64,000 bases of DNA from Terriglobia bacterium (GTDB taxonomy: Bacteria > Acidobacteriota > Terriglobia > Terriglobales > Acidobacteriaceae): NCBI GenBank assembly GCA_020073395.1, contig JAIQFF010000006.1, forward strand, positions 5,431 through 69,430, written 5' to 3'. This document shows positions 4,249 through 51,724 of the stretch, piece by piece. The notes under the pieces are model-generated. The model had not been told where the DNA came from and did no database searches. It worked only from the letters and a program-made list of their open reading frames with translations. How positions within the stretch are numbered: position 1 is the first letter of the stretch; each line of letters starts with the position of its first letter. The position numbers and the translations under genes are program-made.

Positions 4249-4268
4249 GCCGGTTTCCCGCAACGACC

Positions 4269-21992: not shown

Positions 21993-22010
21993 CCGTCTTT
22001 GGATTCGGGC

Positions 22011-29445: not shown

Positions 29446-30870
29446 TCAACATGGCTGCAAGGCTGGCCGCGGGAGAATGACTCTCGCTCTGCAGCCTCGC
29501 TCGTCGGGCCGGTTGGTAAGTTCGAGCGAGCCCCCATGCGCTTCCGCGATTTGCCGCGACAGGATAAGGCCGATCCCGCTTCCGGAAGGTTTGGTGGTGT
29601 AGAACGGAACAAACGCGTTGCTGGGATTCGAAAGGCCCGGACCGTTATCTTCTATGACTAAGGCCACAGCTTTGTCGAGCACCTTCCAGCCAATACTGAC
29701 GGCCGGCTGGAAGCTGTTCCTCGGAGGGGAATCAGCCTCGTTTACGCCCTTGGATGGCGGACCCTCCAGCACTGCTTCGGCCGCGTTGCGCACTAGATTG
29801 ATGAGCATCTGTTCGAGCTGATCCGGATCTGCCATCAGGGTGACCTCAGGTCCAGGAATCACTTTGACTTCTATGCGGGTCTCAAATCCAGCCACGCGCG
29901 TCACCAGTGGTGACAGGTTCGATTTCTTCAGGACAGGCGGCGGCATCTGCGCCAATTGCCGATATGCTTGAAGAAAGCGATTGAGTGACGCGGCACGGGC
30001 CTCGATGATGCCCAGCCCGCGTCCGAAGTCCTCACGCTCATCCGGGGCCAACGTGCTTCCGGCGAGCCGCGCATGCAGGCTTCCGGCGATTGACTTGATG
30101 GGTGCCAGCGAGTTATTCAATTCATGACCCATTACCCGAATCAGGCGCTGCCAGGCGAGTCGCTCTTCTTCCCGCAGGGCCCGGCTCACATCCGAGAGCA
30201 CGACCAGGGTGTGTGGCACTCCCCGTTGTCGAAACGAGCTTCGCCGTAAGAACCAGCGCGCATCGCTATTGAAGTGCAATGGGATCACCGAGGCATTCTC
30301 GGCGGAGAGACATGTTTTCAATCCCAGCTCCGCGGCCGTCCTGCCGAGCAATCTGGGAGAAGCCTGCTGAAGAAGTCTTTCGCCGGCAGAGTTCACCAGC
30401 CGCAGCGCTTCGCCGGGATCGAATGCAAAGAGCGGAATATCCACTTCTTCGACGACACGCTGCAGCAGGGCAGTTGCTTCAATCGCTCCGATGCGATGCT
30501 CCGCCAGCAGGTCGGCGAGCATGTTGACTTCAAGAGAGAGCTCTCCCAGAGCGTCGTCGGGAACCGCCATGCGCGCGCGGAAAGAGTAGTCCTCTTCTCG
30601 CAGAGCGCCGACCACATTGGCCAAGGTCTGCAGCGGGCGAATAATTTGATCGTGAAGTGCTGCAACAATCAATCCGCAGACGACGAGCTCGGCGAAAAGC
30701 AAAGCCAGCTTTGACTCGATGGCCCAGTCCTGCAGCCAGATCAGGACACCGCTGGTCACCAATCCGGGGATGGCCAGCCACAACGACGAACGAATAATCC
30801 GGCGCTCAAAAGAAGCTCGGCGCGCTTTCCTGCGTTTGAGCGGGTCAGTTTCGCGCGGGCTAAAGCCCAT
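29446..30870 (-). CDS. Sensor histidine kinase (2 TM with a minimal outer loop, HAMP, PAS-like, HisKA, HATPase)
   Basis: The predicted TM segments SSLWLAIPGLVTSGVLIWL and LALLFAELVVCGLIVAAL are separated only by QDWAIESK. H-box HELNNSLAPI, plus NLVRNAAEA, EDNGPGL and GSGIGL boxes. Confidence 0.85.
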   Translation of the reverse strand: MGFSPRETDPLKRRKARRASFERRIIRSSLWLAIPGLVTSGVLIWLQDWAIESKLALLFAELVVCGLIVAALHDQIIRPLQTLANVVGALREEDYSFRARMAVPDDALGELSLEVNMLADLLAEHRIGAIEATALLQRVVEEVDIPLFAFDPGEALRLVNSAGERLLQQASPRLLGRTAAELGLKTCLSAENASVIPLHFNSDARWFLRRSSFRQRGVPHTLVVLSDVSRALREEERLAWQRLIRVMGHELNNSLAPIKSIAGSLHARLAGSTLAPDEREDFGRGLGIIEARAASLNRFLQAYRQLAQMPPPVLKKSNLSPLVTRVAGFETRIEVKVIPGPEVTLMADPDQLEQMLINLVRNAAEAVLEGPPSKGVNEADSPPRNSFQPAVSIGWKVLDKAVALVIEDNGPGLSNPSNAFVPFYTTKPSGSGIGLILSRQIAEAHGGSLELTNRPDERGCRARVILPRPALQPC

Positions 30871-32275
30871 ACTTTTCCATTCGACGATAGAGCGCGCCGC
30901 GGCTCAGGCCTAGGGCTTCGGCGGCCTGGCTTACATTGCCCTGGAAGCGCTGCAAGGCCTTGCGGATCAGAATCGTCTCTACTGATTCGAGGCTCAGTTC
31001 CTCCAGGTTCTGCGCCTGTGATCGCTGCAGTCCCAAACCGAGGTCGCCCGGCTGGATTTGCTCAGTGCGGCACATGAGGACAGCGCGCTCCAGCGTGTGC
31101 TCCAACTCACGAACGTTGCCGGGCCAGGAATATTGCATTAACGATTGGAGGGCAGAGGAATCGAGCCCGCGAATCGCACGGCGGTACCGGGAGGCGTAAT
31201 GGGACAAGAAGTGGAGGGCAAGGACCGGAATATCCTCGCGGCGCTCGCGCAATGCAGGCAAATGGATTTCAACCGTGTTGAGGCGAAATAGCAAGTCTTC
31301 GCGGAACTGCCCAGCCTGACAGGCCGCCTGGAGATCCGAATTGGTAGCCGAGATGAGGCGCACGTCAATCCGCTTGGAACGCGACGATCCCACCCGTTCG
31401 ATTTCTCCTGACTCCAGCACGCGCAACAACTTGGATTGCTGGCGCATGGGCACGTTGCCGATCTCGTCCAGAAAAATCGTGCCGCCATCCGCCAGTTCGA
31501 AGCGGCCGATGCGGTCCGTGCGGGCATCGGTGAAGGCGCCCTTCACGTGGCCGAAGAGTTCACTCTCAAAAACGCCTTCGGCCAGGCCGCCAGTATTCAC
31601 TGCGACCAGCTGACGCGAGGCCCGCAACGACAGGACATGGATGGTGCGCGCGACTATTTCCTTGCCCGTCCCATGCTCGCCGGTAATCAGGACATTGGCG
31701 TCGGATGGAGCAAAGCGAGTGATGGCTTCCAGTACGGGGACCATTGACGGCGCGGTAGCGATGAACTCGGGACGCCCCTGAACGTTCAGCAGACGGTTTT
31801 CAGCCGCCAGCCGTTCCGCTCGCTGCAACGCGCGATGAAGTTCGACCTGGGTCCGCAAAATGGCGAGCAGCCGCTCGTTCTCCCACGGCTTCTGAATAAA
31901 ATCCCGCGCTCCCCGGCGCATGGCCTCAACCGCCAGGTCCACGTTGCCCCATGCCGTCATGACAATCACGGGCAACGTGCTGTCCATCGCGACGATGTCT
32001 GAAAGCAAACCCAGCCCTTCCTGTCCGGATGTGGTGTCCCGCGTGTAGTTCAGATCGATCAATACCGCGTCGTAGGAAGAGCTCGCGAGGGCTTCGCGGG
32101 CGAGCTCGGGAGAGCGGACAACGTCAACCTCGTAGCCCTGAGGTTTCAGCAGGAGCTCAATGGCTTCGAGGATGTGTTGCTGGTCGTCGGCCGCTAGAAT
32201 GCGGGGAAATTTGGATGCGCTTTGCGCCAACCCGGCGGAAAGCCCAATCTCCCCCGTCTTGGTTGAGCTTGGCAT
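30860..32275 (-). CDS. Sigma54-dependent response regulator (NtrC family)
   Basis: A receiver (RILAADDQQHILEAIELLL) is followed by an AAA+ core with GEHGTGKE, ELFGHVKGAFTDA and FLDEIG, then a C-terminal Fis-type HTH (GNVSQAAEALGLSRGALYRRMEKYGL). Confidence 0.9.
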   Translation of the reverse strand: MPSSTKTGEIGLSAGLAQSASKFPRILAADDQQHILEAIELLLKPQGYEVDVVRSPELAREALASSSYDAVLIDLNYTRDTTSGQEGLGLLSDIVAMDSTLPVIVMTAWGNVDLAVEAMRRGARDFIQKPWENERLLAILRTQVELHRALQRAERLAAENRLLNVQGRPEFIATAPSMVPVLEAITRFAPSDANVLITGEHGTGKEIVARTIHVLSLRASRQLVAVNTGGLAEGVFESELFGHVKGAFTDARTDRIGRFELADGGTIFLDEIGNVPMRQQSKLLRVLESGEIERVGSSRSKRIDVRLISATNSDLQAACQAGQFREDLLFRLNTVEIHLPALRERREDIPVLALHFLSHYASRYRRAIRGLDSSALQSLMQYSWPGNVRELEHTLERAVLMCRTEQIQPGDLGLGLQRSQAQNLEELSLESVETILIRKALQRFQGNVSQAAEALGLSRGALYRRMEKYGL

Positions 32276-32278
32276 GAG

Positions 32279-34183
32279 CTAAGGGCTTTGACTGGCGACG
32301 GTGCCGTTTTCTGCGTCCTGCACCCGTATTCCATTATGTTCCAAAGTGCTGCCAGTTGCACGATCAAGCTCAACTTTTGCCTTTTCGTAGATGGTCACGG
32401 CGGTGACCAAATCCAGCTCAGCGATGGCGAGGTCGCGCTGGGCGGTCATGGTCTGGAAAGTCGATCCCGCCCCCAGCGTTTGCTCTTTCTGCATGATCTC
32501 GAAAGTACGCTGCGCCAGGTCCCGCGCCTTGCGCGCGGCGCCAACCCGCGCCCCAGTCTGCTCCAACGCATATTGCGCGTTCCGGACCTCAATCCGAATC
32601 TGCTTTTTCAATTGCTCACGGCGGAGTTCGGCCTGCCGGTATTCCAGCTCGGAGCGGTACTGATCTGCCTTGGCCACGCGATTGCGGATGGGGATATTAA
32701 GACTCAGTCCAATGTAGTAGTCAGGGGAGGAATTGTTGAAGGCATTGGAGAGCGCTCCCGAGTAATCTGTGGGCACGTTGGAAGAATTCGGAGTGGGAAG
32801 GTTGTAGATCGGATTCAGCGGTCCGGCCAATCCCGATCCTCCGTAGAAACCAACCAGGGCCAGCGACGGTAACAACGCATTGCGCGCCGCTTTCCCACTG
32901 ATCTGCCGGTTCACCAGATCAACATCAGATTCGGCAAGTTCAGGGCGCTCGCGCAATGCCTGGGCGATGAGGTCCTGGACCGCTTCCGTGGCCTGGGTTT
33001 CGACAGTCTCGAAGTGGTCCACAGGAACAACTGGCACAGCTTCAAGCACGGGATCATCAAGACTTTTGGTCAGCGCATTCTTGATGAGCAGCTCCTGCAG
33101 TTGCAGGCTGGTGCGAGCCACGGTCAAGTCCTGATCGCGCTTTGACACTTCAGCCTCGGCGCGCATCACGTCCATGGCAGGAATACTGTCAAGCTGAAGC
33201 TGTTTCCTGGCATTGTCCAGCGATTGCTGGGCAAACGCCAGCGACTGCTCGTTGACCCGCGCCTGCTCGTAGGCGTTTACCAGGTCCCAATAAATGTTCT
33301 TGATCTGGGTGATGGTCGCGGTCACCTGATCCTTAAACGCGATGTCAGAGATCTTCTTGTTGTTCTTGGCGATGGTCAGATAGCGCAGGTTGGGCCCAAA
33401 GCCGAATCCCGCCAGCAGCTGCTGCTGGAAGGAGAAGCGGTACATGGAATTCAGGACAGGTGACAGGTTGAAGAACGGGCTGTTGGTCGTCTGGCGGCTG
33501 TTGTTGAACTCGACGGTAAAACTGGTGCCGGTCGGAAAAGCCTGCGAGTAAGTGACGCTGGCCTGTCCGGTGTTCGATTGCAGCGAGGGCACGCCGTAGA
33601 TCTGCTGATTGGCCAAAGGCGTAGTCTGGTGCTCCGCGCCAACCGAGGCCACGATCGCAGGATCGTACGAGGCGACTGCTGTGCCGGCGCCGAGTGTCGA
33701 TTGCACCAATCCGGACGCGCCTGCGCCCGCACCACCAGCGCCGCCGGTCGTGCCGCCCGCGCCAGCTCCGGGAGCTCCAGTGCCGAAGCCGCCGACGCCG
33801 CCACCGGGAGTTCCCTGTACTACGCCAGCATTGACGCCGCGAAAAATTCCGCCGGCACGGGTGCGCAAGATGTCCATGTTCGCGATGGGAAGATTGTAAC
33901 GCGCGATGGCCAGGTCAAGATTGTTCTCGAGCGCCAGCCGGATGGCATCCTTGAGAGACAAGTACAGCTTGCCGTCGCGGATCAACTGATCAAGCAACGG
34001 AGAATTTGCGAGGTCTGGACGCGGAACGCGGTCCGCCGAATACGCGCTAAACGGATTGTGCGATGCCTGCATGTCATAACGCACAGACGCGTTGGTCTGT
34101 CCCGAAGCCGTCGCGGTCAGGGCGACCAGGAACCATGCCACACATCGCGCCAGAAAGTTGGGCCGGGAAGCAATAGCTTTCAT
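32279..34183 (-). CDS. TolC-family outer-membrane channel with a Gly-rich insertion
   Basis: Signal peptide, LSLKDAIRLALENNLDLAIARYN (OEP-family N-terminal motif) and a two-repeat coiled layout. The insert is GTPGGGVGGFGTGAPGAGAGGTTGGAGGAGAGASG. Confidence 0.85.
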   Translation of the reverse strand: MKAIASRPNFLARCVAWFLVALTATASGQTNASVRYDMQASHNPFSAYSADRVPRPDLANSPLLDQLIRDGKLYLSLKDAIRLALENNLDLAIARYNLPIANMDILRTRAGGIFRGVNAGVVQGTPGGGVGGFGTGAPGAGAGGTTGGAGGAGAGASGLVQSTLGAGTAVASYDPAIVASVGAEHQTTPLANQQIYGVPSLQSNTGQASVTYSQAFPTGTSFTVEFNNSRQTTNSPFFNLSPVLNSMYRFSFQQQLLAGFGFGPNLRYLTIAKNNKKISDIAFKDQVTATITQIKNIYWDLVNAYEQARVNEQSLAFAQQSLDNARKQLQLDSIPAMDVMRAEAEVSKRDQDLTVARTSLQLQELLIKNALTKSLDDPVLEAVPVVPVDHFETVETQATEAVQDLIAQALRERPELAESDVDLVNRQISGKAARNALLPSLALVGFYGGSGLAGPLNPIYNLPTPNSSNVPTDYSGALSNAFNNSSPDYYIGLSLNIPIRNRVAKADQYRSELEYRQAELRREQLKKQIRIEVRNAQYALEQTGARVGAARKARDLAQRTFEIMQKEQTLGAGSTFQTMTAQRDLAIAELDLVTAVTIYEKAKVELDRATGSTLEHNGIRVQDAENGTVASQSP

Positions 34184-34887
34184 TGCTTCACCGCCTCATA
34201 GGGCTGTAAATCCGGGTTTGCCGTGTCGCCCACCATCCAGCCATCGCGCAATTGGATGGTGCGAGAGCCGTAGGCCGCGTTTGCTTCCGAGTGGGTCACC
34301 TGAACGATCGTGGTTCCTTGCTGGTTGAGCTCGCGAAAGAGTTCCATAATTTCCTTGGCCTGCGAGGAGTGCAGGTTTCCCGTGGGCTCGTCGGCCAGCA
34401 AAAGCGCGGGCTTGTGTATGACAGCACGAGCCACTCCTACGAGCTGCTGCTGCCCTCCGGAAAGCTGGCTGGGAAACAAATCCTTTTTGGCAACAATCTG
34501 GAAGCGGTCCAGCGTGTCGGCCACCAGGCCCTGCCGCTGCCCGCTGGGGACGTCTTTATAAGAGAGTGGCAGGTCGATGTTCTCGCGCACGGTCAGATCG
34601 TCGAGCAAGTGATAACTCTGGAAGACCATCCCGATGTTGCGTTTGGCGAGTTCGCCACGCTGCTTGCGTTTCATGTCATGAACAGCTTGGTCGCGAAACC
34701 AGTACTCGCCTAACCACTGATCATCGAGCAAGGCAAGCACGTTGAGCAGCGAAGACTTCCCTGCTCCGGACGGCCCCATGAAAGTAACGAACTCGCCCTG
34801 GCGAATCTCCAGCTTGATGCGGCGTAGGACCCAGGTTTGTCCGGCTGCGGTTTTGTAACTGCGTTCGACATTTTTCAATTGGATCAT
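34180..34887 (-). CDS. ABC ATP-binding protein, MacB/LolD-type NBD
   Basis: Walker A GPSGAGKSSLL, signature LSGGQQQLVGVARA, Walker [12 protein letters not shown]. It overlaps the TolC start by 4 nt. Confidence 0.9.
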   Translation of the reverse strand: MIQLKNVERSYKTAAGQTWVLRRIKLEIRQGEFVTFMGPSGAGKSSLLNVLALLDDQWLGEYWFRDQAVHDMKRKQRGELAKRNIGMVFQSYHLLDDLTVRENIDLPLSYKDVPSGQRQGLVADTLDRFQIVAKKDLFPSQLSGGQQQLVGVARAVIHKPALLLADEPTGNLHSSQAKEIMELFRELNQQGTTIVQVTHSEANAAYGSRTIQLRDGWMVGDTANPDLQPYEAVKQ

Positions 34888-34913
34888 TTGGTTTCTACTC
34901 TGGTAATAATTTC

Positions 34914-37469
34914 TTATTCGTAGTGCAACGCGATGTTCGGATCAGTTTGCATGGCCCGCCGGGCCGGGATGTAGCATGCAAGCAGCGCCACGGCAATCAA
35001 CCCGAACGCGGCCGCTGCTATGGTCGTGGGGTCGGACGGCTTTACTCCGAACAGAAAGCTTTGCAAATAGCGGGTCACGGCCAACACTGCGATGAAGCCA
35101 ACCAGCACGCCTGACCCTGAAATCAATGCACCCTGCCGGATCACGAGACGAAGGACATCGCCGCGCTGCGCCCCTAGAGCCAGTCGAATTCCGATCTCTC
35201 GAGTTCGCATGGAAACCTGATAAGAGAGCAATCCGTAGATTCCTACACACGTAACGATCAACGCCAAAACCGCGAACAGGGTCGAAAGATTGGCGATGAG
35301 CTGCTCCTGATAAATGTTCTGGTCGATCTGCTCCGCCTGGGTTTTCATGCCGGTGACTAGAAGATTGCTATCAAAACGGGTTACAGCGTCGCGAATTCCC
35401 GGCATCATTGCCTTCGAGTCCATCGCGGTGCGGACCTCGAAGTAGAAATCCGCATCCCAATTGCCAATTGAGTTGTAAATGGTTGGTTGGATTTCGTCGC
35501 GTACATTAGCGTACTTGGTGTCAGCCACCACGCCGACAATTTCGTCCTCAGGTCCATCCTCATTCTCCCGAAAATGGCTTCCCAGTGGATTTTCCGCTCC
35601 AAATAATCGGCGCGCCAAAGCCTGGTTCACAACGACGCGCGTCGGGACGCTGTTAGAGGGAGGCCCGGAATCCTGCGCACTTAACGTGCGGCCTTCGAGT
35701 AGACGAATGCCCATCGTTTGAAAGAAATTGCCAGCTACCGGAAGTACACCAACGTGGATGGGTCGGCCTGATTGATCTTTGGAAAAAATCTCACCGCCCA
35801 TACCCCCGCCGCTCAAAAGTAAAACTCCCGAGCGGCTGGCTGAAATGACACCCGGAAGAGACGAGAGTCGACCCTGAACGTCGCTATAGAGAGTCTGGAG
35901 GTTTTCCCCCGAACGCTTGCTATAACTGGCGTCAACCTGGAAGACGACGAGGTTTTGAGGATCGAAGCCGATGTTTTCGGCTTTCAAATTGGACAAGGTG
36001 CGCACCAACAACGTCGTCCCCGCAAGAACCAACATGGCGAGCGCCACCTGAACAACAACTAGCGCGCTACCCAGAGAAATCGGGCGTCCGGGTGTACCAG
36101 GCGCTGTCCCCGAGGTTTGTTTGAGTGCAGGAATCAACTCGGGCCGCTTACTGGAAGACGCGGGTGCAAGGCCAAAAGCGATACCGGTAAGAATGGAAAC
36201 CAGTGCGGTAAAGACAAGCACGTGAGCATCGGGACGGACGTCCACCTTCACCGGCAGGTACCAGTTATGCGATAGAAACCCTGCGAGAGCGCTAGCGCCA
36301 AGGTCACCGAGGAGAATTCCAATGGCCCCTCCCGCAACCGACAGAAGCACACTTTCCGTGAGCAACTGGCGGAGGATTCTTCCCCAAGTCGCCCCGAGCG
36401 CAACACGCATCGCCAACTCTTTTTGTCGCGCTTTCGAACGCGCGAGCGTCAGCCCTGCAATGTTGGCGCAAGAGATGAGCAGGACCAGAGCCACCGCAGC
36501 GAACAGCGCAAAAAGGGGCTGAGAGAAATTCTGGCGTAATGTGACCAATCCATGTGCAGAACTTGAGAGTGTGACTCGCGGCGAATCATCGGGTCTGAAC
36601 ATGGCGTCTGGACCATTGGTCGTGGCGGCAGCAAACAGGACGCTGGCGGCTGAAGCAGACTGCATAATACTTATGCCGGGCCTCAGTCGCGCCATCAATT
36701 CGACCCATAAAGCCTTTGCATCCGTCTTCTTCGGCAGACGCGGCTCGACTGCAGCCTGAAAGGCCATGGGCAGCCAGATGTCGGACGGGAGGCCAGGATC
36801 AAGTTCGGGGAAGTCCCCACCGGTGATGCCGATCACCGTGAACAATGTCTTACCCACTAAAACGTCTTTGCCCAGGACAGAGGGATCTTGGCCTAGTTCG
36901 TTCTGCCAAAAACGGTGGCTGACGGCAATGGCAGGCTTAGCCGTATCCGAATCGTCGGTGGGAGCGATGAGGCGGCCAAGTGCCGGATGTGCGCCCAGTA
37001 CAGAGAAGAAATTGCCGGAGACAAGTAGAACCCGCGCATGGCTAGTCTTACCGCCAGAATTCACGGCGAGCTCTGCGGGAAGCGGAACAAACGCTACGAC
37101 ACTTGAAAAAGTGCTGGATTTCTCTTGAAGCTCTTGGAACAGCGGAAAGGAAAATGAGCACCCGTCGGGTTCGAGCGGTGCTTGAGAAATAAGCGCCCGT
37201 CCGTTCCAAAAGCCTCCCCCGTGGGTGCAATTGTCATACGCGAGGGAAGCGGTCGTGTCTGGGATTCGGCGCGCTTTCCATTTCAGGAGCACGAGGCTCT
37301 GCGGATTTTTGATCGGCAGCGTGCGCAGCATGATTGAGTTAATCAGGCTGAAGATGGCAGTATTTGCCCCGATTCCTAGCGCCAGAGTTACGACCGCCAC
37401 GGCGGTAAACACCGGAATCTTGCGCAATTGGCGCACCGCGTAGCGTAGATCTTGAATTAGTACATTCAT
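34914..37469 (-). CDS. ADOP-family permease (duplicated MacB_PCD + FtsX modules), copy 1
   Basis: I moved the start to [40 protein letters not shown]. About 850 aa with two periplasmic-domain/FtsX repeats and a C-terminus ...DPNIALHYE. Confidence 0.9.
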   Translation of the reverse strand: MNVLIQDLRYAVRQLRKIPVFTAVAVVTLALGIGANTAIFSLINSIMLRTLPIKNPQSLVLLKWKARRIPDTTASLAYDNCTHGGGFWNGRALISQAPLEPDGCSFSFPLFQELQEKSSTFSSVVAFVPLPAELAVNSGGKTSHARVLLVSGNFFSVLGAHPALGRLIAPTDDSDTAKPAIAVSHRFWQNELGQDPSVLGKDVLVGKTLFTVIGITGGDFPELDPGLPSDIWLPMAFQAAVEPRLPKKTDAKALWVELMARLRPGISIMQSASAASVLFAAATTNGPDAMFRPDDSPRVTLSSSAHGLVTLRQNFSQPLFALFAAVALVLLISCANIAGLTLARSKARQKELAMRVALGATWGRILRQLLTESVLLSVAGGAIGILLGDLGASALAGFLSHNWYLPVKVDVRPDAHVLVFTALVSILTGIAFGLAPASSSKRPELIPALKQTSGTAPGTPGRPISLGSALVVVQVALAMLVLAGTTLLVRTLSNLKAENIGFDPQNLVVFQVDASYSKRSGENLQTLYSDVQGRLSSLPGVISASRSGVLLLSGGGMGGEIFSKDQSGRPIHVGVLPVAGNFFQTMGIRLLEGRTLSAQDSGPPSNSVPTRVVVNQALARRLFGAENPLGSHFRENEDGPEDEIVGVVADTKYANVRDEIQPTIYNSIGNWDADFYFEVRTAMDSKAMMPGIRDAVTRFDSNLLVTGMKTQAEQIDQNIYQEQLIANLSTLFAVLALIVTCVGIYGLLSYQVSMRTREIGIRLALGAQRGDVLRLVIRQGALISGSGVLVGFIAVLAVTRYLQSFLFGVKPSDPTTIAAAAFGLIAVALLACYIPARRAMQTDPNIALHYE

Positions 37470-37473
37470 GTTC

Positions 37474-39906: not shown

Positions 39907-39913
39907 TTATTCC

Positions 39914-42343: not shown

Positions 42344-42351
42344 AGTTCTCC

Positions 42352-44806
42352 TTACTCGTATCTCAAGGCCACCATGGGATCAACCTTCGCCGCGCGACGC
42401 GCGGGAATGTAGCTGGCAAGCAAGGCCACAGCCAGAAGCAAGAGTGCGGCCTCGGTCAGTGTGGCTGGGTCATTTGGCTTTATTCCAAACAGCAGCGCGC
42501 CAATCCATCGAGCAGCAACCAGCGAACAGAAAGTGCCGGCGACAGCGCCGCCGGCAATCCATACCAGCGTCTGGAACACCATGACTCTGGTGACAGTAGC
42601 CGGGTTCGCGCCCAGCGCCAGACGAATGGCAATTTCCCGGATGCGCTGGCTCACCAGCAAGGAAACCAGGCCGAAGATACCCACTGCCGCGAGAAGCAGG
42701 CCGATCGCGGCAAATAGCGAAAGCAGAGCAGCCGTAAATCGGGGACGCTCCGCGAGCCGATACACGGTTTGACCCAGGGTGCTTGACTCCAGGGGCAACG
42801 TCGGGTCAAGCGCCGCGACGGAGTCTCGTATTTCTTTGGCTACCGTCTGGGGATCAATTGCACTGCGTACCACCATGCTGATGCGCTGAGAGTCTAGATA
42901 ATTGAAGATGCGGTCGTTCGCGCTGTGACTGCGAACTAGGTAATATTCGGGACCTATGTGTCCGCCGAGCCCCTGATTTTGCGTGTTGGCAGTCACACCT
43001 ACGATTCTGAACGTGGCAGCGTCGCGCACTTCGTCGGAACTAAAGTGGATGGTCTTGCCCACCGGGTCCTGGCCGGGAAAGAGGCGTTGAGCCAGGGCTT
43101 GGTTAAGGATCATGGCGTCATACGCTGAGGTGCGGTCCTGTTCCTCAAAGGCCCGTCCGCGCAGCAGAGGAATGCCCAGTACCGAGAAATATTTCGGCGT
43201 CACAGATCTCCAACTCACGATTCCACCAATGCCCTGGTCAGGGCTGAGAGGCGGTTGCCCTTCCGCTTCGAGCGCAACCAACGGCATCGTGCGCGCCGGG
43301 GTCTCAGGGGGGAGCGAGTCACTGAGGGCAGCCGCCGCGACACCGGGCAATTGCTGGAGTTTGTTCCAGTTGCTCGAAGAATGCAAGGCGCTGTGCCGGT
43401 TGAGCATATTTTTCCTGCCCAAGCGTGATCGCCGCCGTAACAATATTTTGCGTATTCATCCCCAACGGCTGGACCTCGAGGTTGCGAAGAGTCCGCAGGA
43501 ACAGCAGCGCACCCGTAACCAGAATAAGAGTCATGCAAACCTGAGCAGCCATCAGAGCCTTTCGCAGGTTGCTTCGCCGTGTGCCGGCCACAGTCATGGC
43601 CACCAGAGCTTCCGGGCGTGGCTTTTCCAGCGCGGGTAAAGTGCCAAAAACAACTCCGGCAGCGCTCGACGACAGAAGCGCGAAGATCAGGGCCCTGACG
43701 TTTACCATCGCCTCCGGCAAGCGTGGTATTCCTGCCGGGGAAAGAGCGACGAAGCCATGAACAATCAGGTAAGCAAGCCCACATCCGATTGCGCCTCCAA
43801 CCAGTGCGAGCAGCATGCTTTCTGTGAGCCTTTGCTGAAACAGGCGAAGGCGGGCGGCGCCGAGCGCAGACCGGACCGCAAGCTCGTGTCGCCGCCCCGT
43901 GCTGCGGGCAAATACGAGGTTGGCCACATTGGCGCAGGCGATTAGCAGGCCCGCAAGGGCCGAGACCAGCAGGAACCAGGCCGCGCGACGGGAGTCATGA
44001 ATCTGCAAATCGCGTATGGAGCGGACCTGAAGCCGCAGTTCTTTTCGAAACGGAGGCGGCGCGGATTCCACAAAGGTCCGAAACAAAAGCGGCAACTGCG
44101 CTACCGCCGCGTCGATGCTGACGCCTGGTTTCAGGCGTCCGTACACGCGGACCGTCGGTCCCATCAAATTACGTTGCACAATGGATTCATCGAGGGCCTC
44201 GGGCACGACCAGCCCTGTACCGGCCAGCGTCGGAAATTCAAAGTCACGCGGCAACACTCCCAAGACCCGTGTTGGCTTTCCATCAACCGAAATCGTGCGA
44301 TCAACAATGCCGCGATCGCCTCCAAACCGGCTTTGCCATATTCCATACGAGAGCAATGCGACTTTGGGAGAATCGGGGCGATCCTCTTCCGGCGTGAAGT
44401 TCCGGCCCAGGATGGGTTGCACACCGAAGGTAGACAGGAAGGTGGACGCTACGGACGCGCAGCTTGATCGGACGGGGCGGTCATCGGTGAGATCACAATC
44501 GTTCACGCCAGTGGACGACGTGAAGTTCGCGAACGGAGTTTGATCGCGCCTCCACGACAGATAATTCGCCGCAAAGAGAAACTCGCCGTCAATAATAGGA
44601 GCGATGACTCCGACGGAAACCAACTGCTCAGCGTGGGGATAGCGCAAGCCGCGGAAGAGCGCGCCGTCCACCAAACTGAACATCGCAGTAGTTGCGCCGA
44701 TCCCTAGCGACAATGTGAACACGGCGACCGAAGTGAATCCCGGGCTCTTGCGCAGTTGCCGCAGAGCGTAGCGAATGTCCTGGAGCAGGCCGGTCATCCT
44801 GTTCAT
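42352..44806 (-). pseudogene. ADOP-family permease, copy 4, interrupted by a frameshift near 43360
   Basis: The N-terminal ORF (44806-43319, [22 protein letters not shown]...AFFEQLEQ) and the C-terminal ORF (43443-42352, ...LQQLPGVAAAAL...[10 protein letters not shown]) together cover one ADOP gene in two frames. The frames cross at GAACAAACTCCAG (plus-strand TTT at 43360-43362). Confidence 0.75.
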
Positions 44807-44813
44807 CTCCTCC

Positions 44814-47234
44814 TTACTCGTACCTCAGAGCGACCATGGGGTCGACCTTGGCTGCGCGACGTGCCGGGATATAGCTCGCTGCTATCGCGACTCCACTGAG
44901 CACGACCACCACCGCAGCAAACGTTGCCGGGTCAGTAGGCCGTGTGCCGTACAGCAGGCCCACCATAAGGCGGCTTAGCGCCAAAGCTCCGGCCAGTCCC
45001 ACGGCGACTCCGGCCAGCGCTTGAACTATTCCCTGGAAGACCACCAGTTTGAGCACATCTCGTCCTTGCGCCCCTAGCGCCATGCGGACGCCGATCTCGT
45101 GGGTCCGCCGGGAGACCGAATAGCTCATGACACCGTAGATCCCTACTCCCGCCAGGACCAGCGCTACCGTGGCAAACGCGCCCAGCAGAACCATGTAGAA
45201 CCGCGACTGTCCTGTGGCTTCAGCGACCACGTGGTCCATGGTCTGGATTTCGGACAGCGGAATGTTGGTGTCGAGCGAGTGAATTGCTCCTCGGATGGCT
45301 GGGGCCAAGGCGGCGGGATCAAGGCCGGTTCGTACCACCAGGGTCAAGTAGGCAAATGGCGGCGATGGCATGTCGAGATACGCGCGGTTCTGCAGATAAG
45401 GCAGAAATACTTCCTCTTCGGGCGGACTCACCCAATTGCTGCGGGCGGTGTTCTTCGCCACACCCACTACGGTGAGCCACGAGGGATTTCTCGCCGGATC
45501 GTCAAACGTGATTCTCTTGCCGATCGCATCTTCGCCGGGCCAATAGCGACGGGCGATATAGTCGTTGACTATCACCACTCCCGGCGCGCGTAAATCGTCG
45601 GCATCGGTGAGGTCACGGCCGCGCAGAATCGGGATGCTCATGGTCCGAAAGTAGCCGGGAAAGACCGCGCGGTAGGTGGCAACCAGGTCTCTCCCCGGAG
45701 GCTCCGGCGGCCGGCCCTCGATGTGAAACGGGAAACCCCATTCGTCGCCCGCCAGGGGCAGATGATTGATGCCGCTGACTGATTGAACCCCGGGCACGAC
45801 ACTGACTTTCTGCAGCACTTCCTGATAGAAATTGCCGGTATGGCCAGCGGCCGCCTGCTCCGTACCCGCAACGCCAACCACCAGCGACAACACGCCGTGG
45901 GGATCGAAACCTGGATCCACGTGCTGCAATGCGAGGAAGGTGCGAACCATCAGCCCCGCGCCAGCCAGCAACATTACTGCCAGCGCAAATTCGGAGCCCA
46001 CCAGCAGACCGCGCAGGCGGTGCAGTCCTTGGCTGGACCCGCGTTTACCTTCTTTCAATGCGTCACTGAGGTTGACTGAAGTCGCTCTCCAGGCCGGAGC
46101 CATACCGAAAGCCAGCCCGGTGAATAAGGAAATGACTAGCGCGAACAGCAGCACGTGGCCATCCACCCCCACGGTCTCCACTCTGGGTATGGCGGCTGGA
46201 CTGAGCGCCAGCAGAACGCGAACGCCCCACACTGCAAGCAGCAAACCGGCGCCCCCGCCCAACAGGGCGAGCGCCATGCTTTCGGTCAGGAGCTGGCCGA
46301 ACACATCCCAGCGTCCCGCCCCCAGGGCGGTGCGCAGCGCAATCTCTTCGCGCCGGGCGGCCGCGCGTGCCAGCAACATGTGGCTGACGTTGGCGCAAGC
46401 AATCAGCAGCACGAAGCCCACGGCTCCAAGCAGCACAAGCAACGCGGGACGGATGTTTCCCACGACTTTCTCGCGCAGCGATAGAACCTGCATGTCCTGG
46501 TTGGTGCCGGGGAACTCGCGCTCCAGACGGCCGGTAATGCCCGCCATTTCAGCCTGGGCTTGCTCCAGAGTGACGCCAGGCTTCAGCCGTGCAAATACGC
46601 GTAGCGAGCCGCCCCCGCGATCGGTAAGGCGTGAACCGAGCGCCAGGGGTGCCCAAAGCTGTGCCGTCGCCCAAAAAGGAGCGAACCTGAATTCCCGCGG
46701 CATCACCCCGATCACCGCATATTTCTCACCGCTGAGCGCCACCGACCGGCCGATGACGTCGGGGCTTCCGGCAAAATGGCTCTGCCAGAGGGAGTAGCTC
46801 AACACCACTTCATGTTCTTTGCCGGCCTCTTGTTCTTCCGGCAGGAACACGCGCCCCAACAAGGGTTGGACTCCCAGCATTGGGAGAATCTCTGGAGTGA
46901 TGTGCAACGCCCACAATTTCTCGGGATTGTCAGTGCCGGTCAGGTTCGCAGTCCAGTACTCCGCCGCCCCCATGTGCGAGAAAACCTGGCTCTGACTCCG
47001 CCAGTCGATGAAATTCGCCGGGGACACGGGATTGCGCCCCTTGTTGAGAATTACCACCAGCCGGCTGTCATCTTTATATGGAAGCGGTCGCAGCAAGACG
47101 GCATTGACCACGCTGAAAATGGCTGTGTTCGCGCCGATCCCCAGCGCCAGTGTGATGACCGCCACCGCAGCAAACCCAGGGCTCTTTCGCAGGGCGCGGA
47201 TGGTGTAGCGCAGGTTCTGAAGCAGAGTTTCCAT
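44814..47234 (-). CDS. ADOP-family permease, copy 5
   Basis: I moved the start to [40 protein letters not shown] (ATG at 47234). C-terminus ...[10 protein letters not shown]. Confidence 0.9.
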   Translation of the reverse strand: METLLQNLRYTIRALRKSPGFAAVAVITLALGIGANTAIFSVVNAVLLRPLPYKDDSRLVVILNKGRNPVSPANFIDWRSQSQVFSHMGAAEYWTANLTGTDNPEKLWALHITPEILPMLGVQPLLGRVFLPEEQEAGKEHEVVLSYSLWQSHFAGSPDVIGRSVALSGEKYAVIGVMPREFRFAPFWATAQLWAPLALGSRLTDRGGGSLRVFARLKPGVTLEQAQAEMAGITGRLEREFPGTNQDMQVLSLREKVVGNIRPALLVLLGAVGFVLLIACANVSHMLLARAAARREEIALRTALGAGRWDVFGQLLTESMALALLGGGAGLLLAVWGVRVLLALSPAAIPRVETVGVDGHVLLFALVISLFTGLAFGMAPAWRATSVNLSDALKEGKRGSSQGLHRLRGLLVGSEFALAVMLLAGAGLMVRTFLALQHVDPGFDPHGVLSLVVGVAGTEQAAAGHTGNFYQEVLQKVSVVPGVQSVSGINHLPLAGDEWGFPFHIEGRPPEPPGRDLVATYRAVFPGYFRTMSIPILRGRDLTDADDLRAPGVVIVNDYIARRYWPGEDAIGKRITFDDPARNPSWLTVVGVAKNTARSNWVSPPEEEVFLPYLQNRAYLDMPSPPFAYLTLVVRTGLDPAALAPAIRGAIHSLDTNIPLSEIQTMDHVVAEATGQSRFYMVLLGAFATVALVLAGVGIYGVMSYSVSRRTHEIGVRMALGAQGRDVLKLVVFQGIVQALAGVAVGLAGALALSRLMVGLLYGTRPTDPATFAAVVVVLSGVAIAASYIPARRAAKVDPMVALRYE

Positions 47235-47239
47235 GTTCC

Positions 47240-49687
47240 TCACTCGTAGCGCAACGCCACCATGGGATCGACTCTGGCTGCGCGGCGTGCCGGGACATAT
47301 GCCGCAAGCAGAGCTATCGCAATCATCGCCACAGTGCCGGAGGCGATCGGGACGGCGCTTCTTATCTGCAGCTCGGGCACCAGGCTTGCGGCAAACCTCT
47401 CGCTCCAGAACGCGATAGGCGCTCCTACCGCCGAACCGATACAAACCATGCCCAGCGCGTCTCTGATCACCATCCAGGTCGCGTTACTTTGAGTTGCGCC
47501 CAGTGCCATGCGAATCCCGATCTCGTTGATGCGTCGCGCCACCGTGTACGTCAGCAGTCCATAGAGGCCGATGGCCGCAAGCAGCGCCCCCAGCACGCCG
47601 AACCACAGGGAGAGCGTCGCCATGAGCCGCTCTGGAACGATGGACGCATTCACCTGGTCGGTGAGCGTCGTGATGCTCTTTACGGAGACTGTCTTCAGCA
47701 TGTCGCGCACCACGCGCCGGACATCGGGAGCCACCGCCTCGGGGTCAACACCGGTCCGCAGCGCAAATCGCGAATCCACCGAAGGTTCCTGGAAAGTGTT
47801 GAGGTAGATGGTGCGCCACGTAGCTTCGCGCATTTCCATGTACTTCGCATCACCGGCAACGCCAACAATCTGGTATGGCTGGCCGTCACCGTCGAAAGTG
47901 ACATGTCTCCCGATGGGATCGCGGCTGCCGAAATAGTAGCGGGCCATGGTCTGATTGATGATCGCCACGCGTGGCCCACCCTTGTCCCCGAAGCTGAAGT
48001 CGCGCCCCATCAGCAACGGTGTGCCGACGGTTGCAAAATATTTCGGTGCGACCCAGCTCTCCATGACGTTGCGGATTTCTCCCGGCTTGGCCTCGTAGCC
48101 TTCTACCGTGACGCCGCGATTTGCTCCCGCTCCCGAGATCGGAGATGGGGCGCAGATTGTGGCCGAGCGCACGCCCGGGATCGCCTCCAGGTGTTGCAGC
48201 AAATCCTGATACGCGAGTGACAAGTGTTCGTCGTTATATCCACTGCCTTCGGGATCAAGAGTCACGAGCAGAACGTGGTCGGGGTGGAAGCCCAAATCGA
48301 GATGGCGGAGATTCAACAAGTGGCGAACAAACAGCCCGGCCGCGCTCAATAGCACAACCGACAAAGCCACCTGGGCAACCACCAGGGTCTTTCCGAACAA
48401 CCGGCGGGGCCTGGTCTCACTGGTACCGCCCGCTTGCCGGAGGGAGGATGCCGGGGCGGTCCTCATGGCCCGCAGAGCGGGAACCAGTCCAGATAGCAAT
48501 ATGGTCAACAAGGTGATTGCCGCTGTGAAAAGCAGCACGTGCATATCGGCCCGGACATGGAACTCGAGAGGCGGCCCCGGCCGTCGTTCCGCAACGATGA
48601 TTTTGGCTAAGACTCCGGCGCCGAAATACGCCACGTAAACGCCCAGCAGACTGCCGACTGCGGAAAGCAGCAAAGACTCGGTCAGCACCTGCCGCGCCAG
48701 GCGAAAGTGACCGGCCCCCAAAGAGAGGCGCAACGCCATTTCGTGTTCCCGGGTTGCCCCGCGCGCCAGCAGCATGCTGGCCAGATTGGTGCACGCAATC
48801 AGCAGCAGCAGGCCCACAACGGCCAACAGCAGCAGCAGTGGCTTGGCCCATTCCTCGCGCAGCTGCGAGAGGCCGGCACCCGCGGGCTCCATCTCAAGTT
48901 TCATCTTGCGAATAAATGGATTGTTGGTGGCCTTGGCCTGCTCCTCGAGAGTCGACTCGTATAACACCGCCGTCTCTGCTTGCGCCTGATTGATGGAGAC
49001 GCCGGGTTTCAACCTGCCCACCAACCACAACGATCCCCACCCGAGGCCGGAGCGAACAACGGTCGGCTGCATGGCCAGAGGCAGCCAGACGTCCTGGCGA
49101 GACTCCACCTGCAATCCGGAAAACTTGCGCGGCGCCACTCCGACAATCGTCACCAGCATATCTTCCACGATGATTTGCTTGCCCAGCATTGCCGGGTCGA
49201 GATTGAACCTGCTTTTCCAGTAGGACCAACTCACCACAGCTACTGCGGAAGGATCACCGGTGCGGTCATCCTCTGGACCGATCAGCCTGCCGATCGCAGG
49301 TTGCATCCCGAGGACAGGAAAAAAGTTTCGGTCAACATATCCGCCTTGCAGCGTTTGTGGTTCCAGACCTTCGCCGCGCACGTGGAAGGGTTGATAAGCA
49401 GCGGCGATCAAACCCGAGAACACATGATTGTGGTCGCGCATGAGCTGGTAGGCCTGCGGGGAGAAGCCATTCAGATGCGGCTCACCCGGATACCTGTGCA
49501 GGAGTTCGACCAGTTGCTCCGGTTCCCGCACTGGCAGCATGCGTAGCATGAGAGTATTGACCAGGCTGAAGATTGCCGTGTTGGCGCCGATTCCCAATGC
49601 CAGCGTCAGCACGGCGACCGCAGTGAACCCAAGGTTCTTCCGGAGTTGCCGCAGGGCGTACCGGAGATCTTGGATCAGGCCGTTCAT
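47240..49687 (-). CDS. ADOP-family permease, copy 6
   Basis: N-terminus [41 protein letters not shown]-terminus ...[10 protein letters not shown]. The start overlaps the ATPase stop (ATGA). Confidence 0.9.
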
Positions 49688-50409
49688 GCATGCACGTCCG
49701 CCATCAATTTCTTCAGTTCTTCCTCCGCCACCACTTTCCCGTCGAACAAATGCACTTCACGTTCGGCATGCTTGGCAAAGCGCGGATCGTGCGTGACCAT
49801 ACAGATGGTTGCACCCTCGCGGTGCAGGTTCTGGAGCAACTCCATCACGGCCTCGCCGTTGCGGGAATCCAGATTTCCCGTGGGCTCATCAGCCAGCAGA
49901 ATGGAGGGCTTTCCTCCCAGCGCGCGCGCCACGGCCACGCGCTGCTGCTGGCCGCCGGAGAGTTGCGAGGGATAATGTCGCACGCGGTGCGCCATGCCTA
50001 CGCGCTCCAGCGCCTCCATCACGCGTTTCTTGCGCTCGACCGCGGGCATCTTCTGCCTGTAGGTCAGCGGCAGTTCAACGTTTTCGTAAACCGTGAGGTC
50101 GCCAATCAGATTGAAACTCTGGAAGATGAACCCTATCTCCTGATTGCGAATGCGCGAGCGCTCGGCAAAGCCCAGATTCTCCACGGGCTGGCTGTTCAGC
50201 TGGTAGCGGCCCCCGGTCGGCGTATCGAGCAGGCCGATGATCGAAAGCAGGGTGGACTTGCCGCATCCCGAAGGACCCGACATGGCTACGTACTCGCCCT
50301 TGCGGATCGCCAGGTGGACGCCGGAAAGCGCGTGGGTTTCAACTTCGTCGGTGTAAAACACTTTGGTGAGATCTTCAATCTGGATCAGCGCTTGTCCTGT
50401 TTCAGTCAT
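49684..50409 (-). CDS. ABC ATP-binding protein, MacB/LolD-type NBD
   Basis: I moved the start to [19 protein letters not shown] (ATG at 50409). Walker [12 protein letters not shown], signature [14 protein letters not shown], Walker [13 protein letters not shown]. Confidence 0.9.
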
Positions 50410-50461
50410 GACGTGTGCCTCAATCGGTTGTCTAGTCGAGCTTGTTTTAGTCAAGCTGGTC

Positions 50462-51724
50462 TTAATCAAGTCTGATACGGTCGGTGTTATCCGAGCGCGA
50501 CATGTCGGAAAGAATCACCGTGTCGCCTTCGTGCAACCCTTCAATAATCTGAATTGAATTTACGGAGGCGCGCCCTACCTTTACCGGAACGCGAACCGCG
50601 CCCGTGCCATTCGCATCCAGTTTGAACAGGCTGATGGTGCTGTTCTCCTGTCCAAAGGCGGGACGGCCGACGTAGAGCACGTTCTCCAGCCGCTCCAGGT
50701 CGATGGTTCCGTCCACGCTCAGGTCGGGCCGCGCTCCCTTGGGGAGTTCACCGGTGAGCTGCACGTCAACCGTGACCGTACCGTTCTGCACTGCGGGATC
50801 GACTCGCATCACCGTTCCCGGAACCGTCCCGTTGTGCGTGTCAACCATCGACGGTTGTCCAATCTGTATGTCTCGCGCCTGGGTCTCGGCAATCTTTAAC
50901 TCGGCAATCAGATGGTTGGGCTGGACCACCTTGGCCAGCATCGCACCGGGCAAAACGTGCTGTCCCACCTGTAACGGCAGATCGACCAGGACGCCGTCGA
51001 TGCCGGCGCGGACCTTGAGCGCATCCAACTGTTTTTGCTTTAGCTCCGCGAGGGCACGCATCTGGTCCACTTTGGCCTGCTGTTGGGCCATCTGCGATTC
51101 GATCGCTTTCTGGTTGATGGCCAGCCGTTCATCTTCAATGTTGTTTCGCGTAGTGAGTTCGTCGGCCTTGCCCTTCGACGCTTTGTACGCGAGACCCGAA
51201 ATCACGCCGAGATCGTAAAGCGCTTTGTCAGTCTCCGACTGCAGCTTGGCCTGGCTGTAATCCGCGGTCACGGTGGCGGCGCCCGCTTTCTGGTTCATCA
51301 GATCGCTCTGCAGCTTGACCCGCAGACTCTGGTATTCGGCCTCGGCAGCCTTGAGTTGCAGCCTGGCGTCAAGCGCTGCCTGCTCGACTTGCGGATTGCT
51401 CATCTCCAGAAGAATGCTGTCAGCTTTCACCTGAGAACCCGGCAGCATTCGAATGCGAACGACAGTGGCTTCTGTCTCCGCTGGTATTTGACGGGTGAAC
51501 TCCTGGCTGGGAATCAGGGACCCCAGTCCTCTGACCTGGCGCAGCATGGGGCCGCGCTTGACGGTGTCGGTCCACACCGTACTGCGTTCCACTTCCTGTG
51601 CCGCCGGTTTCAGGCGGGACACGCCGATGGTGACGATCCCGAGAACTACTACACCGAGCACCACCCCGACGATTTGGCGGCGCCTCTTCTGGCGCTTGAT
51701 GTCCGGACGTGCGATATCCATCAT
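50462..51724 (-). CDS. MacA/HlyD-type periplasmic adaptor (membrane fusion protein)
   Basis: N-terminal anchor (IVGVVLGVVVLGIVTIGV), a long Ala/Gln-rich coiled-coil segment and C-terminal beta domains ending ...GDTVILSD. Confidence 0.85.
   Translation of the reverse strand: MMDIARPDIKRQKRRRQIVGVVLGVVVLGIVTIGVSRLKPAAQEVERSTVWTDTVKRGPMLRQVRGLGSLIPSQEFTRQIPAETEATVVRIRMLPGSQVKADSILLEMSNPQVEQAALDARLQLKAAEAEYQSLRVKLQSDLMNQKAGAATVTADYSQAKLQSETDKALYDLGVISGLAYKASKGKADELTTRNNIEDERLAINQKAIESQMAQQQAKVDQMRALAELKQKQLDALKVRAGIDGVLVDLPLQVGQHVLPGAMLAKVVQPNHLIAELKIAETQARDIQIGQPSMVDTHNGTVPGTVMRVDPAVQNGTVTVDVQLTGELPKGARPDLSVDGTIDLERLENVLYVGRPAFGQENSTISLFKLDANGTGAVRVPVKVGRASVNSIQIIEGLHEGDTVILSDMSRSDNTDRIRLD

Follow-up and report, generated by a model that had tools for sequence, protein, structure and literature searches.

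A conserved ATPase-pair, adaptor and TolC frame around a variable array of duplicated ADOP permeases in Terriglobales

ADOPs (duplicated orphan permeases) form one of the largest families of bacterial membrane proteins without known function. The word "orphan" in the name refers to the lack of an apparent ATPase partner gene. The family was reportedly first mentioned by Ward et al. in 2009, and most ADOPs in acidobacterial genomes are reported to have no adjacent partners (NCBIfam family TIGR03434). Here, a gene block was analysed in a 64-kb stretch of DNA from a soil acidobacterium of the Terriglobia (contig JAIQFF010000006.1; the whole stretch is referred to as the window), in which ADOP genes lie together with genes for an adaptor, two ATP-binding cassette (ABC) ATPases, a TolC-family protein and an NtrC-type two-component system. 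The block runs without interruption on the minus strand from 51724 to 29446, and its main pattern, missed by the initial annotation of this DNA, is that a conserved frame encloses a permease array which is hypervariable and cassette-like.

All part types of the block are already known. In MacAB-TolC of Escherichia coli (PDB 5NIK), as in the block, a type VII unit of four transmembrane (TM) helices with a periplasmic domain between TM1 and TM2 is combined with a MacB/LolD-type nucleotide-binding domain (NBD), an adaptor with membrane anchor and alpha-hairpin (both predicted in the block) and a TolC-family duct, and MacB is both the closest PDB sequence match for ADOP and a structural match for each ADOP half. 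The block differs from MacAB-TolC in that the NBD is not fused to the permease but encoded as separate polypeptides by two paralogous genes, in that each ADOP is predicted to be one 8-TM chain with two non-identical periplasmic domains instead of part of a homodimer, in having up to six alternative permeases per operon and sigma-54/NtrC control, and in that MacA and TolC are no more than remote relatives of its adaptor and its TolC-family protein. YbbAP-TesA of E. coli (PDB 9GE6-9GE8) shares with ADOP the single-chain duplicated type VII permease with two periplasmic domains, and with the block the ATPase subunits separate from the permease (2:1) (PMC12646458). However, YbbP has 10 TM helices, two of them linkers (PMC12646458), whereas ADOP is predicted to have 8 in a direct 4+4 fusion, because it lacks the two linker helices that bring YbbP and BceB to 10 (PMC12646458, PMC5985334). 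Moreover, no ADOP-YbbP sequence similarity was detected by phmmer at E 1e-3, and YbbAP, with one ATPase gene and one permease, works with a periplasmic lipid hydrolase and not with an adaptor and TolC (PMC12646458).

Two further exporters or sensors of this kind show partial likeness. The darobactin exporter DarBCD (NF038007/8/10) likewise combines an adaptor and an ATPase with a long, duplicated permease of the FtsX type. DarD is the best NCBIfam match for both ATPases of the block (236 and 242 bits against a cutoff of 375), and the adaptor (79 versus 450 bits) and the ADOPs (at most 46 versus 700 bits) also stay far below the DarBCD equivalog cutoffs. In contrast to the block, DarBCD has a single permease, and no gene for a precursor of a ribosomally synthesized and post-translationally modified peptide or for a radical-SAM protein lies near the block. 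In BceAB-BceRS of Firmicutes, a fused type VII permease and a separate ATPase adjoin a two-component system, and the kinase BceS, like that of the block, has two TM helices and almost no external loop; by analogy, the parallel between the block and Bce may extend to function. However, BceB has 10 TM helices and one extracellular domain, where ADOP is modelled with 8 TM helices and two periplasmic domains, the Bce regulator is OmpR-type and sigma-70-dependent, where that of the block is NtrC-type, and Bce modules have one permease each and neither adaptor nor TolC.

A cluster of ADOP genes has been reported before. Genomic island 43 of Psychroflexus torquis holds an uncharacterised 42-kb cluster with about ten ADOP paralogues and ATP-binding transporter proteins, and the cluster is highly translated (PMC3914696). 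This cluster belongs to Bacteroidota, and no conserved frame, adaptor, TolC, sigma-54 system or turnover analysis is described for it. The view that the multi-permease layout has no characterised precedent has to be narrowed, since single-chain fused type VII permeases such as YbbP and BceB and the uncharacterised ADOP cluster had already been published (PMC5985334, PMC12646458, PMC3914696). In the literature library searched, the phrase "duplicated orphan permease" was found in no more than two papers, and no description was found of an ADOP array of cassette type that is bracketed by paired ATPases within a conserved frame, of a sigma-54 promoter and operator of an ADOP frame, or of an 8-TM direct-fusion topology within a TolC-linked system.

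Gene boundaries in the window were taken from the listing of open reading frames (ORFs) and from inspection of start codons, and domains were called with Pfam and NCBIfam (Table 1). Six ADOP-length genes occupy 49687-34914, with gaps of 5, 7, 8, 7 and 4 nt between them; the initial annotation had counted five. The third of the six is split by a frameshift. The spacings it reported around the frame genes are all exact: 52 nt between the adaptor and ATPase1, a 4-nt overlap (ATGA) of ATPase1 with ADOP1, 26 nt between ADOP6 and ATPase2, a 4-nt overlap of ATPase2 with the TolC gene, 3 nt between the TolC and regulator genes, and an 11-nt overlap of regulator and kinase. Pfam and NCBIfam also bear out its list of parts, namely an adaptor of HlyD/MacA type, ATPases of MacB/LolD type, duplicated permeases of FtsX/MacB type, a member of the TolC family, and a kinase together with its regulator of NtrC type.

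Table 1 Features of the ADOP block and its surroundings in the window, with the identity of the frame proteins in relatives
Feature	Position	Strand	Characteristics	Identity to window
Further ADOP outside the block	57632-60067	-	TIGR03434	
Further ADOP outside the block	about 55183-57585	+	TIGR03434	
ADOP7, 845 aa	52085-54622	-	Co-directional, directly upstream of the operon promoter	
Terminator-like hairpin	51884-51869	-	Between ADOP7 and the candidate enhancer; only intergenic one in 33000-52500	
Candidate enhancer (upstream activating sequence, UAS)	51859-51825	-	GTTCGCAAATGGACA-N14-CGGACA; dyad GTYCR-N4-TGGACA plus third half-site	
Sigma-54-type -24/-12 element	51750-51736	-	TGGATTGAAAGTTGC (GG-N10-GC); GG and TGC invariant with fixed spacing in 9 genomes	
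Adaptor	51724-50462	-	HlyD/MFP family, membrane-anchored, periplasmic; conserved ATG start at 51721	78-94%
ABC ATPase 1, 241 aa	50409-49684	-	MacB/LolD/DarD-like NBD; Pfam ABC_tran	89-98%
ADOP1, 815 aa	49687-47240	-	TIGR03434, 876 bits; two copies of MacB_PCD and FtsX (Pfam)	
ADOP2, 806 aa	47234-44814	-	TIGR03434, 996 bits	
ADOP3, frameshifted near 43363	44806-42352	-	Two ORFs, 43319-44806 and 42352-43443	
ADOP4, 809 aa	42343-39914	-	TIGR03434, 947 bits	
ADOP5, 810 aa	39906-37474	-	TIGR03434, 948 bits	
ADOP6, 851 aa	37469-34914	-	TIGR03434, 819 bits	
ABC ATPase 2, 235 aa	34887-34180	-	DarD/FtsE/MacB-like NBD; profile matches	83-98%
TolC-family outer-membrane factor, 634 aa	34183-32279	-	Signal peptide; Pfam OEP	73-96%
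NtrC-type response regulator	32275-30860	-	REC-AAA+-HTH_8 (Pfam)	75-98%
Histidine kinase, intramembrane-sensing type	30870-29446	-	Pfam HATPase_c	61-95%

To place the block among related genomes, one genome per species was scanned with the TolC-family protein, and relatives were found in 408 genomes. The best 80 of these 408 loci (TolC 73-96% identical) were fetched, and their ORFs were classified against the window proteins. As a result, the order adaptor-ATPase1-(ADOP)n-ATPase2-TolC-NtrC-kinase was found to recur in all fetched loci that are long enough, except for a second frame type (type B) described below. The frame is conserved in 79 further species-level Terriglobales genomes, with frame proteins 61-98% identical. 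The search for this gene order in relatives, which the initial annotation had put forward, thus found it kept in about 80 species-level genomes, and a chance origin of the order was rejected because of this conservation.

Between the two ATPase genes, the content of the locus is anything but conserved. Where both ends of the array are visible, the number of ADOPs is 0 (five loci), 1 (four), 2 (three) or 3 (five); three arrays closed by pairing loci of the same contig contain 5, the window contains 6, and another 45 loci carry at least 4 ADOPs in an array that runs past the 10-kb flank. The 15 loci with TolC at least 90% identical to that of the window have a mean frame identity of 94%; of their 42 array ADOPs, 20 reach 80% identity or more to some window ADOP, and another 20 stay below 50% to all nine window ADOPs. 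At a frame identity of about 82%, 37 of 40 array ADOPs share less than 50% identity with any window ADOP. This bimodal distribution of sequence identities indicates that the contents of the slot are replaced by cassette rather than gradually diverged. Clustering of 172 full-length array ADOPs at 60% identity gave 57 clusters, none of them universal, and the largest, that of the ADOP5 type, was present in 15 loci among the arrays sampled. The spacing of the genes is constant, in that 129 ADOP-ADOP junctions in related genomes have a median gap of 10 nt (10th-90th percentile, 5-18 nt), and since this median is kept over so many junctions, the tight spacing is not due to chance. At these junctions, a TACGAG-TGA stop motif often runs into or adjoins a GGA(G)-type Shine-Dalgarno sequence before the next ATG.

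The pattern resembles that of capsule and O-antigen loci, where conserved flanks (here adaptor/ATPase1 and ATPase2/TolC, about 80-98% identical) surround contents replaced wholesale between close relatives. The likeness is a population-genetic analogy only; the contents of the block are paralogous transporters. As long exact DNA repeats are absent among the paralogues, cassette exchange would more likely use the conserved flanking genes as homology arms, as at those loci. What surrounds the frame varies from genome to genome, as a comparison of L001, L003 and L089 shows. In one close relative (L089), a Transposase_mut (IS256-family) gene in two pieces (5331-6589) lies about 570 nt upstream of the ADOP7 orthologue.

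All intact ADOPs of the window (ADOP1, 2, 4, 5, 6, 7, 8 and 9) pass the curated TIGR03434 cutoff of 622.3 bits, with scores of 763-996 bits (819-996 for the five intact array members), and each contains two stretches each of MacB_PCD and FtsX in one chain. The nine window ADOPs are pairwise only 28-41% identical, marking them at the sequence level as ancient paralogues. Recent tandem duplication was rejected on the grounds of this low identity, the lack of long exact DNA repeats and an identity of only about 60-77% at the gene ends. The array members are not "orphan" in the sense of the family name, as six of them sit between two ATPase genes in an arrangement kept in relatives; ADOP8 and ADOP9, which lie outside the block, do fit that status.

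ADOP2 was modelled with AlphaFold2 from aligned sequences of eight window paralogues (mean predicted local distance difference test score (pLDDT) 76), and the model contains eight long TM helices in a 4+4 arrangement, with a large mixed alpha/beta periplasmic domain after TM1 and another after TM5. The helices of the first half (19-48, 262-293, the short cytoplasmic 295-303, 308-344 and 359-386) recur as a pattern at 402-796. The model has the type VII layout: in a unit of four TM helices, the large periplasmic domain follows the first helix, and a cytoplasmic coupling helix connects TM2 to TM3. In a Foldseek search of the PDB, E. coli YbbP was the best full-length match (9GE6, E 6e-20, TM-score 0.48), followed by MacB, Spr0694/5, LolC/E, HrtB and BceB, each matching one half; the matches to YbbP, MacB, LolCE, HrtB and BceB span E 1e-7 to 6e-20. 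A sequence search of the PDB with ADOP returned MacB-type chains only. The earlier proposal that each ADOP is a covalent pseudo-dimer of MacB-type membrane units agrees with the predicted eight TM helices and two periplasmic domains, and the model indicates a single-chain pseudo-dimer of this kind. In an alignment of the 172 ADOPs, conservation is highest in TM1 together with the amphipathic helix at the N-terminus, in the cytoplasmic loops TM2-3 and TM6-7 (motifs R..E.A.R.ALGA and RT.EIG.R.ALGA) and at the C-terminus, and lowest in the two periplasmic domains. This trend is mild among true ADOP orthologues (83-84% versus 87-91% identity). By analogy with MacB and YbbP, the conserved segments would be the NBD-contacting elements.

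ADOP3 deserves separate treatment. The window lacks 2 nt (AG) at about 43363 that are present in two JGI metagenome contigs (L085 and L086), which are 99.24% identical to the window over 21 kb and carry an intact ADOP3 of 815 aa; the two pieces in the window score 455 and 324 bits against TIGR03434. Because near-identical contigs carry the intact gene, the frameshift is a strain-specific lesion or an assembly error and not a designed feature. Programmed frameshifting was rejected, as there is no slippery context and the near-identical contigs are simply in frame. Compared with the same contigs, the window also shows a 6-nt indel at 46022, and it lacks 1 nt each at 60462 and 60315, within or close to a small gene for an HD-domain protein. 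The window assembly may thus contain indel errors, or the strain may have several small lesions.

Other remains of ADOP genes were also observed. In a short-read metagenome-assembled genome (MAG) with a TolC 94% identical to that of the window (L010), the array is replaced by a 115-aa in-frame "mini-ADOP" (1176-1520), in which an ADOP N-terminus is joined to TM7-8 and read through into ATPase2; this looks like a deletion scar, or is possibly a short-read assembly artefact. In the window, an ADOP 3' relic (VDPMTALRYE-stop) lies at 54838-54870 on the minus strand, about 215 nt upstream of the ADOP7 start. Its DNA is 80% identical to the ADOP9 3' end (repeat family D5), which suggests that it is the trace of a lost upstream ADOP. 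These remains raise the question of whether the array results from passive expansion, with ADOPs piling up by duplication and insertion, unneeded by the frame and in several cases redundant or decaying. The frameshifted ADOP3, the relic, the scar in the MAG and the sheer size of the family (a search with ADOP2 returned 73,439 clusters at 50% identity, E <= 1e-30) would all fit such a process. However, the ancient paralogues are still full length and above the family cutoff, junctions are held at about 10 nt over the 129 cases, and ADOP3 is intact in the near-identical contigs. Moreover, many of the split genes occur in MFD MAGs, where indel errors are expected because the names and lengths of the contigs suggest long-read assemblies, which is an assumption. 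Passive expansion is therefore considered very improbable.

The two ATPases that bracket the array are about 45% identical to each other, and Walker A, Q-loop, LSGGQ signature, Walker B-E and H-loop are intact in both. DarD, LolD and MacB NBDs are the best NCBIfam matches of ATPase1. The initial annotation had proposed one ATPase/adaptor/channel set shared by the permeases; the frame carries a conserved ATPase pair, whose genes are found together wherever both array ends are visible and are adjacent even without an intervening ADOP. In all four type-B loci, the two genes adjoin without an intervening ADOP, and in three of these loci they share an ATGA overlap. Since the two occur together wherever both array ends are visible and retain their catalytic motifs, the sequences favour a functional pair, perhaps a heterodimer in which each ATPase would fit one of the unequal ADOP halves; the heterodimer is as likely as two homodimers.

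The same genes bear on the idea that two subsystems have been joined by history. One would be an inner-membrane unit made up of adaptor, ATPase1 and ADOPs; the other would consist of ATPase2, TolC and the two-component system and work with different permeases encoded elsewhere. The ATPases would act as distinct homodimers with distinct partners. Such a division would account for two fully canonical ATPases of only about 45% identity, for the 26-nt gap before ATPase2 as against the 4-nt overlap of ATPase1 with ADOP1, and for the many "orphan" ADOPs, including three in the window, that need an ATPase from somewhere. It is hardly probable, however, given the co-occurrence of the ATPases wherever array ends are visible, their ATGA overlap in three of four type-B loci and the lack of any second promoter or terminator signal seen before ATPase2; in addition, neither adaptor nor duct would be of much use on its own.

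The adaptor matches HlyD_3 and HlyD_D23 in Pfam; in NCBIfam it aligns weakly with DarC over the full length and narrowly misses the RND_mfp cutoff. By sequence it is distant from MacA, MexJ and ZneB, with weak PDB matches that include MacA (4DK1), and orthologues 87-100% identical to it occur in many MAGs of Terriglobales and "Ca. Sulfotelmatobacter". In its AlphaFold2 model, a TM helix (6-37) and an alpha-hairpin (110-236) are predicted with pLDDT above 90. The hairpin, made of two helices of about 60 residues (110-170 and 176-236), is consistent with docking to TolC. The model as a whole was discarded as a query for fold searches because of its mean pLDDT of 52. The TolC-family protein matches Pfam OEP in two repeats (140.5 bits against a cutoff of 22). 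It carries a Gly/Ala-rich low-complexity insert of about 55 residues (GTPGGGVGGFGTGAPGAGAGGTTGGAGGAGAGASG) at residues about 110-170.

To search for control signals, adaptor upstream regions from nine genomes were aligned and their invariant columns recorded. The sigma-54-type promoter emerged solely from this cross-genome alignment, after a strict search for TGGCAC-N5-TTGC with up to 2 mismatches had missed it (93 matches versus 85 expected, none upstream of the adaptor). In all genomes aligned, 14 nt separate the end of its -12 element from the conserved start codon of the adaptor gene ATGGATATC, so that the transcript would start at, or at most 3 nt from, the start codon and the first gene would be near-leaderless. 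A GAGGAG sequence is present upstream of the adaptor ATG in the window despite the near-leaderless transcript that this implies. About 100 nt upstream of the promoter, the dyad GTCCG-N4-TGGACA followed by CGGACA is invariant in the nine genomes. The composite UAS pattern occurs once in the window against 0.01 expected, and the exact dyad GTCCGNNNNTGGACA was found, across 88 loci, only upstream of the adaptor gene. The conserved promoter and the upstream dyad back the link to sigma-54 that had been read from the regulator gene. Inside the block, no sigma-70-like sites were found on the minus strand, and terminator-like hairpins are not enriched (27 versus 19.8 ± 4.8 expected).

The regulator has Response_reg, Sigma54_activat and HTH_8 domains (Pfam E-values 6e-21, 2.7e-63 and 5e-15). 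Its Walker A motif, GEHGTGKE, is conserved in essentially all 68 orthologues, and GAFTDA takes the place of GAFTGA in the window and in 68 of 68 orthologues. GAFTDA is among the variants judged compatible with activation in Desulfovibrio vulgaris (PMC4641369). In the kinase, hydropathy and the alignment of orthologues place two TM helices (about 27-46 and 53-72) with a loop of only some 8 residues between them; a HAMP-like segment and the kinase core follow, and this architecture is kept in orthologues. With two TM helices, a loop shorter than about 25 aa and an encoding next to type VII ABC genes, the protein belongs to the intramembrane-sensing kinases. This architecture is suggestive of BceS, which senses through its partner transporter.

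Type B comprises four loci (L035, L049, L050 and L080). They are without the NtrC/kinase pair, and their TolC is slightly longer (651-666 aa). In the three loci that reach upstream (L049, L050 and L080), the adaptor gene is preceded by ADOPs, with gaps of about 230 nt, and TACTATAAT, with a sigma-70 -10-like TATAAT box, replaces the -24/-12 element. The promoter type thus co-varies with the presence of the NtrC/kinase pair.

We regard as fairly probable that the block encodes a sigma-54-controlled, MacAB-TolC-like type VII ABC (mechanotransmission) pump in which interchangeable single-chain permeases share an ATPase pair, an adaptor and a channel; this sharing is read from gene content and conservation. 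The frame of adaptor, ATPase pair, TolC-family duct, NtrC-type activator and kinase would surround a slot for the ADOP array, and transcription would proceed from the near-leaderless -24/-12 promoter before the adaptor gene through all 14 genes. Each ADOP would bind two NBDs, either as the ATPase1+ATPase2 heterodimer or as one of the homodimers, and together with an adaptor hexamer and TolC would expel its substrate from the periplasm or the outer leaflet. Six divergent ADOPs, each assembling with the same ATPases, adaptor and duct, would provide six specificities with one engine. We infer co-transcription, the direction of transport, ATPase heterodimerisation and sensing through the transporter; as for substrates, our guess is toxic peptides or small molecules from competitors.

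Several points weigh against such a pump. LolCDE, FtsEX, YbbAP-TesA and BceAB do not transport through TolC, and some array ADOPs may likewise depend on the ATPases but not on the duct. Outside its hairpin, the adaptor is poorly modelled (mean pLDDT 52), leaving MacA-like docking unproven, and the TolC-family protein stays below the NCBIfam cutoffs of the TolC and NodT subfamilies and has no sequence match in the PDB. Conservation of the coupling loops is a general trait of the FtsX family and not specific evidence for a shared ATPase. The -24 box of the window is degenerate (TGGATT versus TGGCAC), and, with 10-kb flanks retrieved, only the last approximately four array positions are visible in most loci.

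A rival reading, which we consider rather unlikely, keeps the shared engine without the shared duct: the ADOPs would be mechanotransducers like LolCDE, FtsEX, YbbAP-TesA and BceAB, few or none would couple to the adaptor and TolC, and with the ATPase pair they would extract, present or protect lipids, lipoproteins, antibiotic targets or similar molecules of the envelope. YbbP, the best structural match over the full length, works with a periplasmic hydrolase and not with TolC (PMC12646458), and the intramembrane-sensing kinase recalls BceS, which senses through BceAB. Variation in ADOP is concentrated in the periplasmic domains, and most acidobacterial ADOPs are reported to stand without adjacent partners. 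Yet the adaptor and TolC belong to the same tight conserved operon in about 80 genomes, the adaptor retains a predicted long hairpin of the TolC-docking type, and no gene for a periplasmic enzyme or chaperone is conserved in the block.

An extension of the pump reading to the whole ADOP family is possible, though more doubtful than the pump itself. The adaptor, ATPase pair and TolC would serve as engine and exit duct for a whole repertoire of ADOPs, hypervariable and exchanged horizontally, that comprises the array cassettes and possibly the many orphan ADOPs encoded elsewhere in the genome, much as energy-coupling factor (ECF) modules are shared by S-components. Heterodimeric ATPases would be matched to the ADOP halves, the kinase would read pump activity by Bce-like flux sensing and drive sigma-54 transcription, and strains would swap the contents by flank recombination under diversifying selection from soil antimicrobials.

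For ADOPs, the conserved locus supplies candidate partners in the form of an ATPase pair, an adaptor and a TolC, along with a regulator whose promoter and operator can be recognised. It gives the ADOP family a first clear working context, in which function becomes directly testable. In addition, a frame with a replaceable permease array suggests a cheap way of diversifying envelope defence or export in abundant soil bacteria.

Outside the block, the position of ADOP7 is kept in close relatives, and the gene is probably a separate transcription unit. At the other end, a receiver-only response regulator (28720-29424, minus strand) follows 21 nt after the kinase, and cbiM-cbiQ-cbiO for ECF-type Co/Ni uptake (25617-28391, minus strand) come after it. 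Both are assigned to the outside of the conserved frame because they are co-directional with the block only in the closest relatives. An Rfam scan of the window, including the 328-nt gap before cbiM, found nothing, so no riboswitch is assigned there. An MdtABC-like RND set (17611-25130, plus strand) comprises genes for one HlyD-type adaptor and, in tandem, two members of the AcrB family (1038 and 1043 aa); since no adjacent outer-membrane factor gene was seen, the set could share a TolC. The window also encodes a Ser/Thr kinase fused to TolB-like beta-propeller repeats (705-3431, minus strand), a GH32 glycosidase (4245-5813, plus strand), a large outer-membrane barrel of the CarboxypepD_reg/TonB type (9058-12411, plus strand) and a protein with a KdpD N-terminal domain (60877-61923, plus strand).

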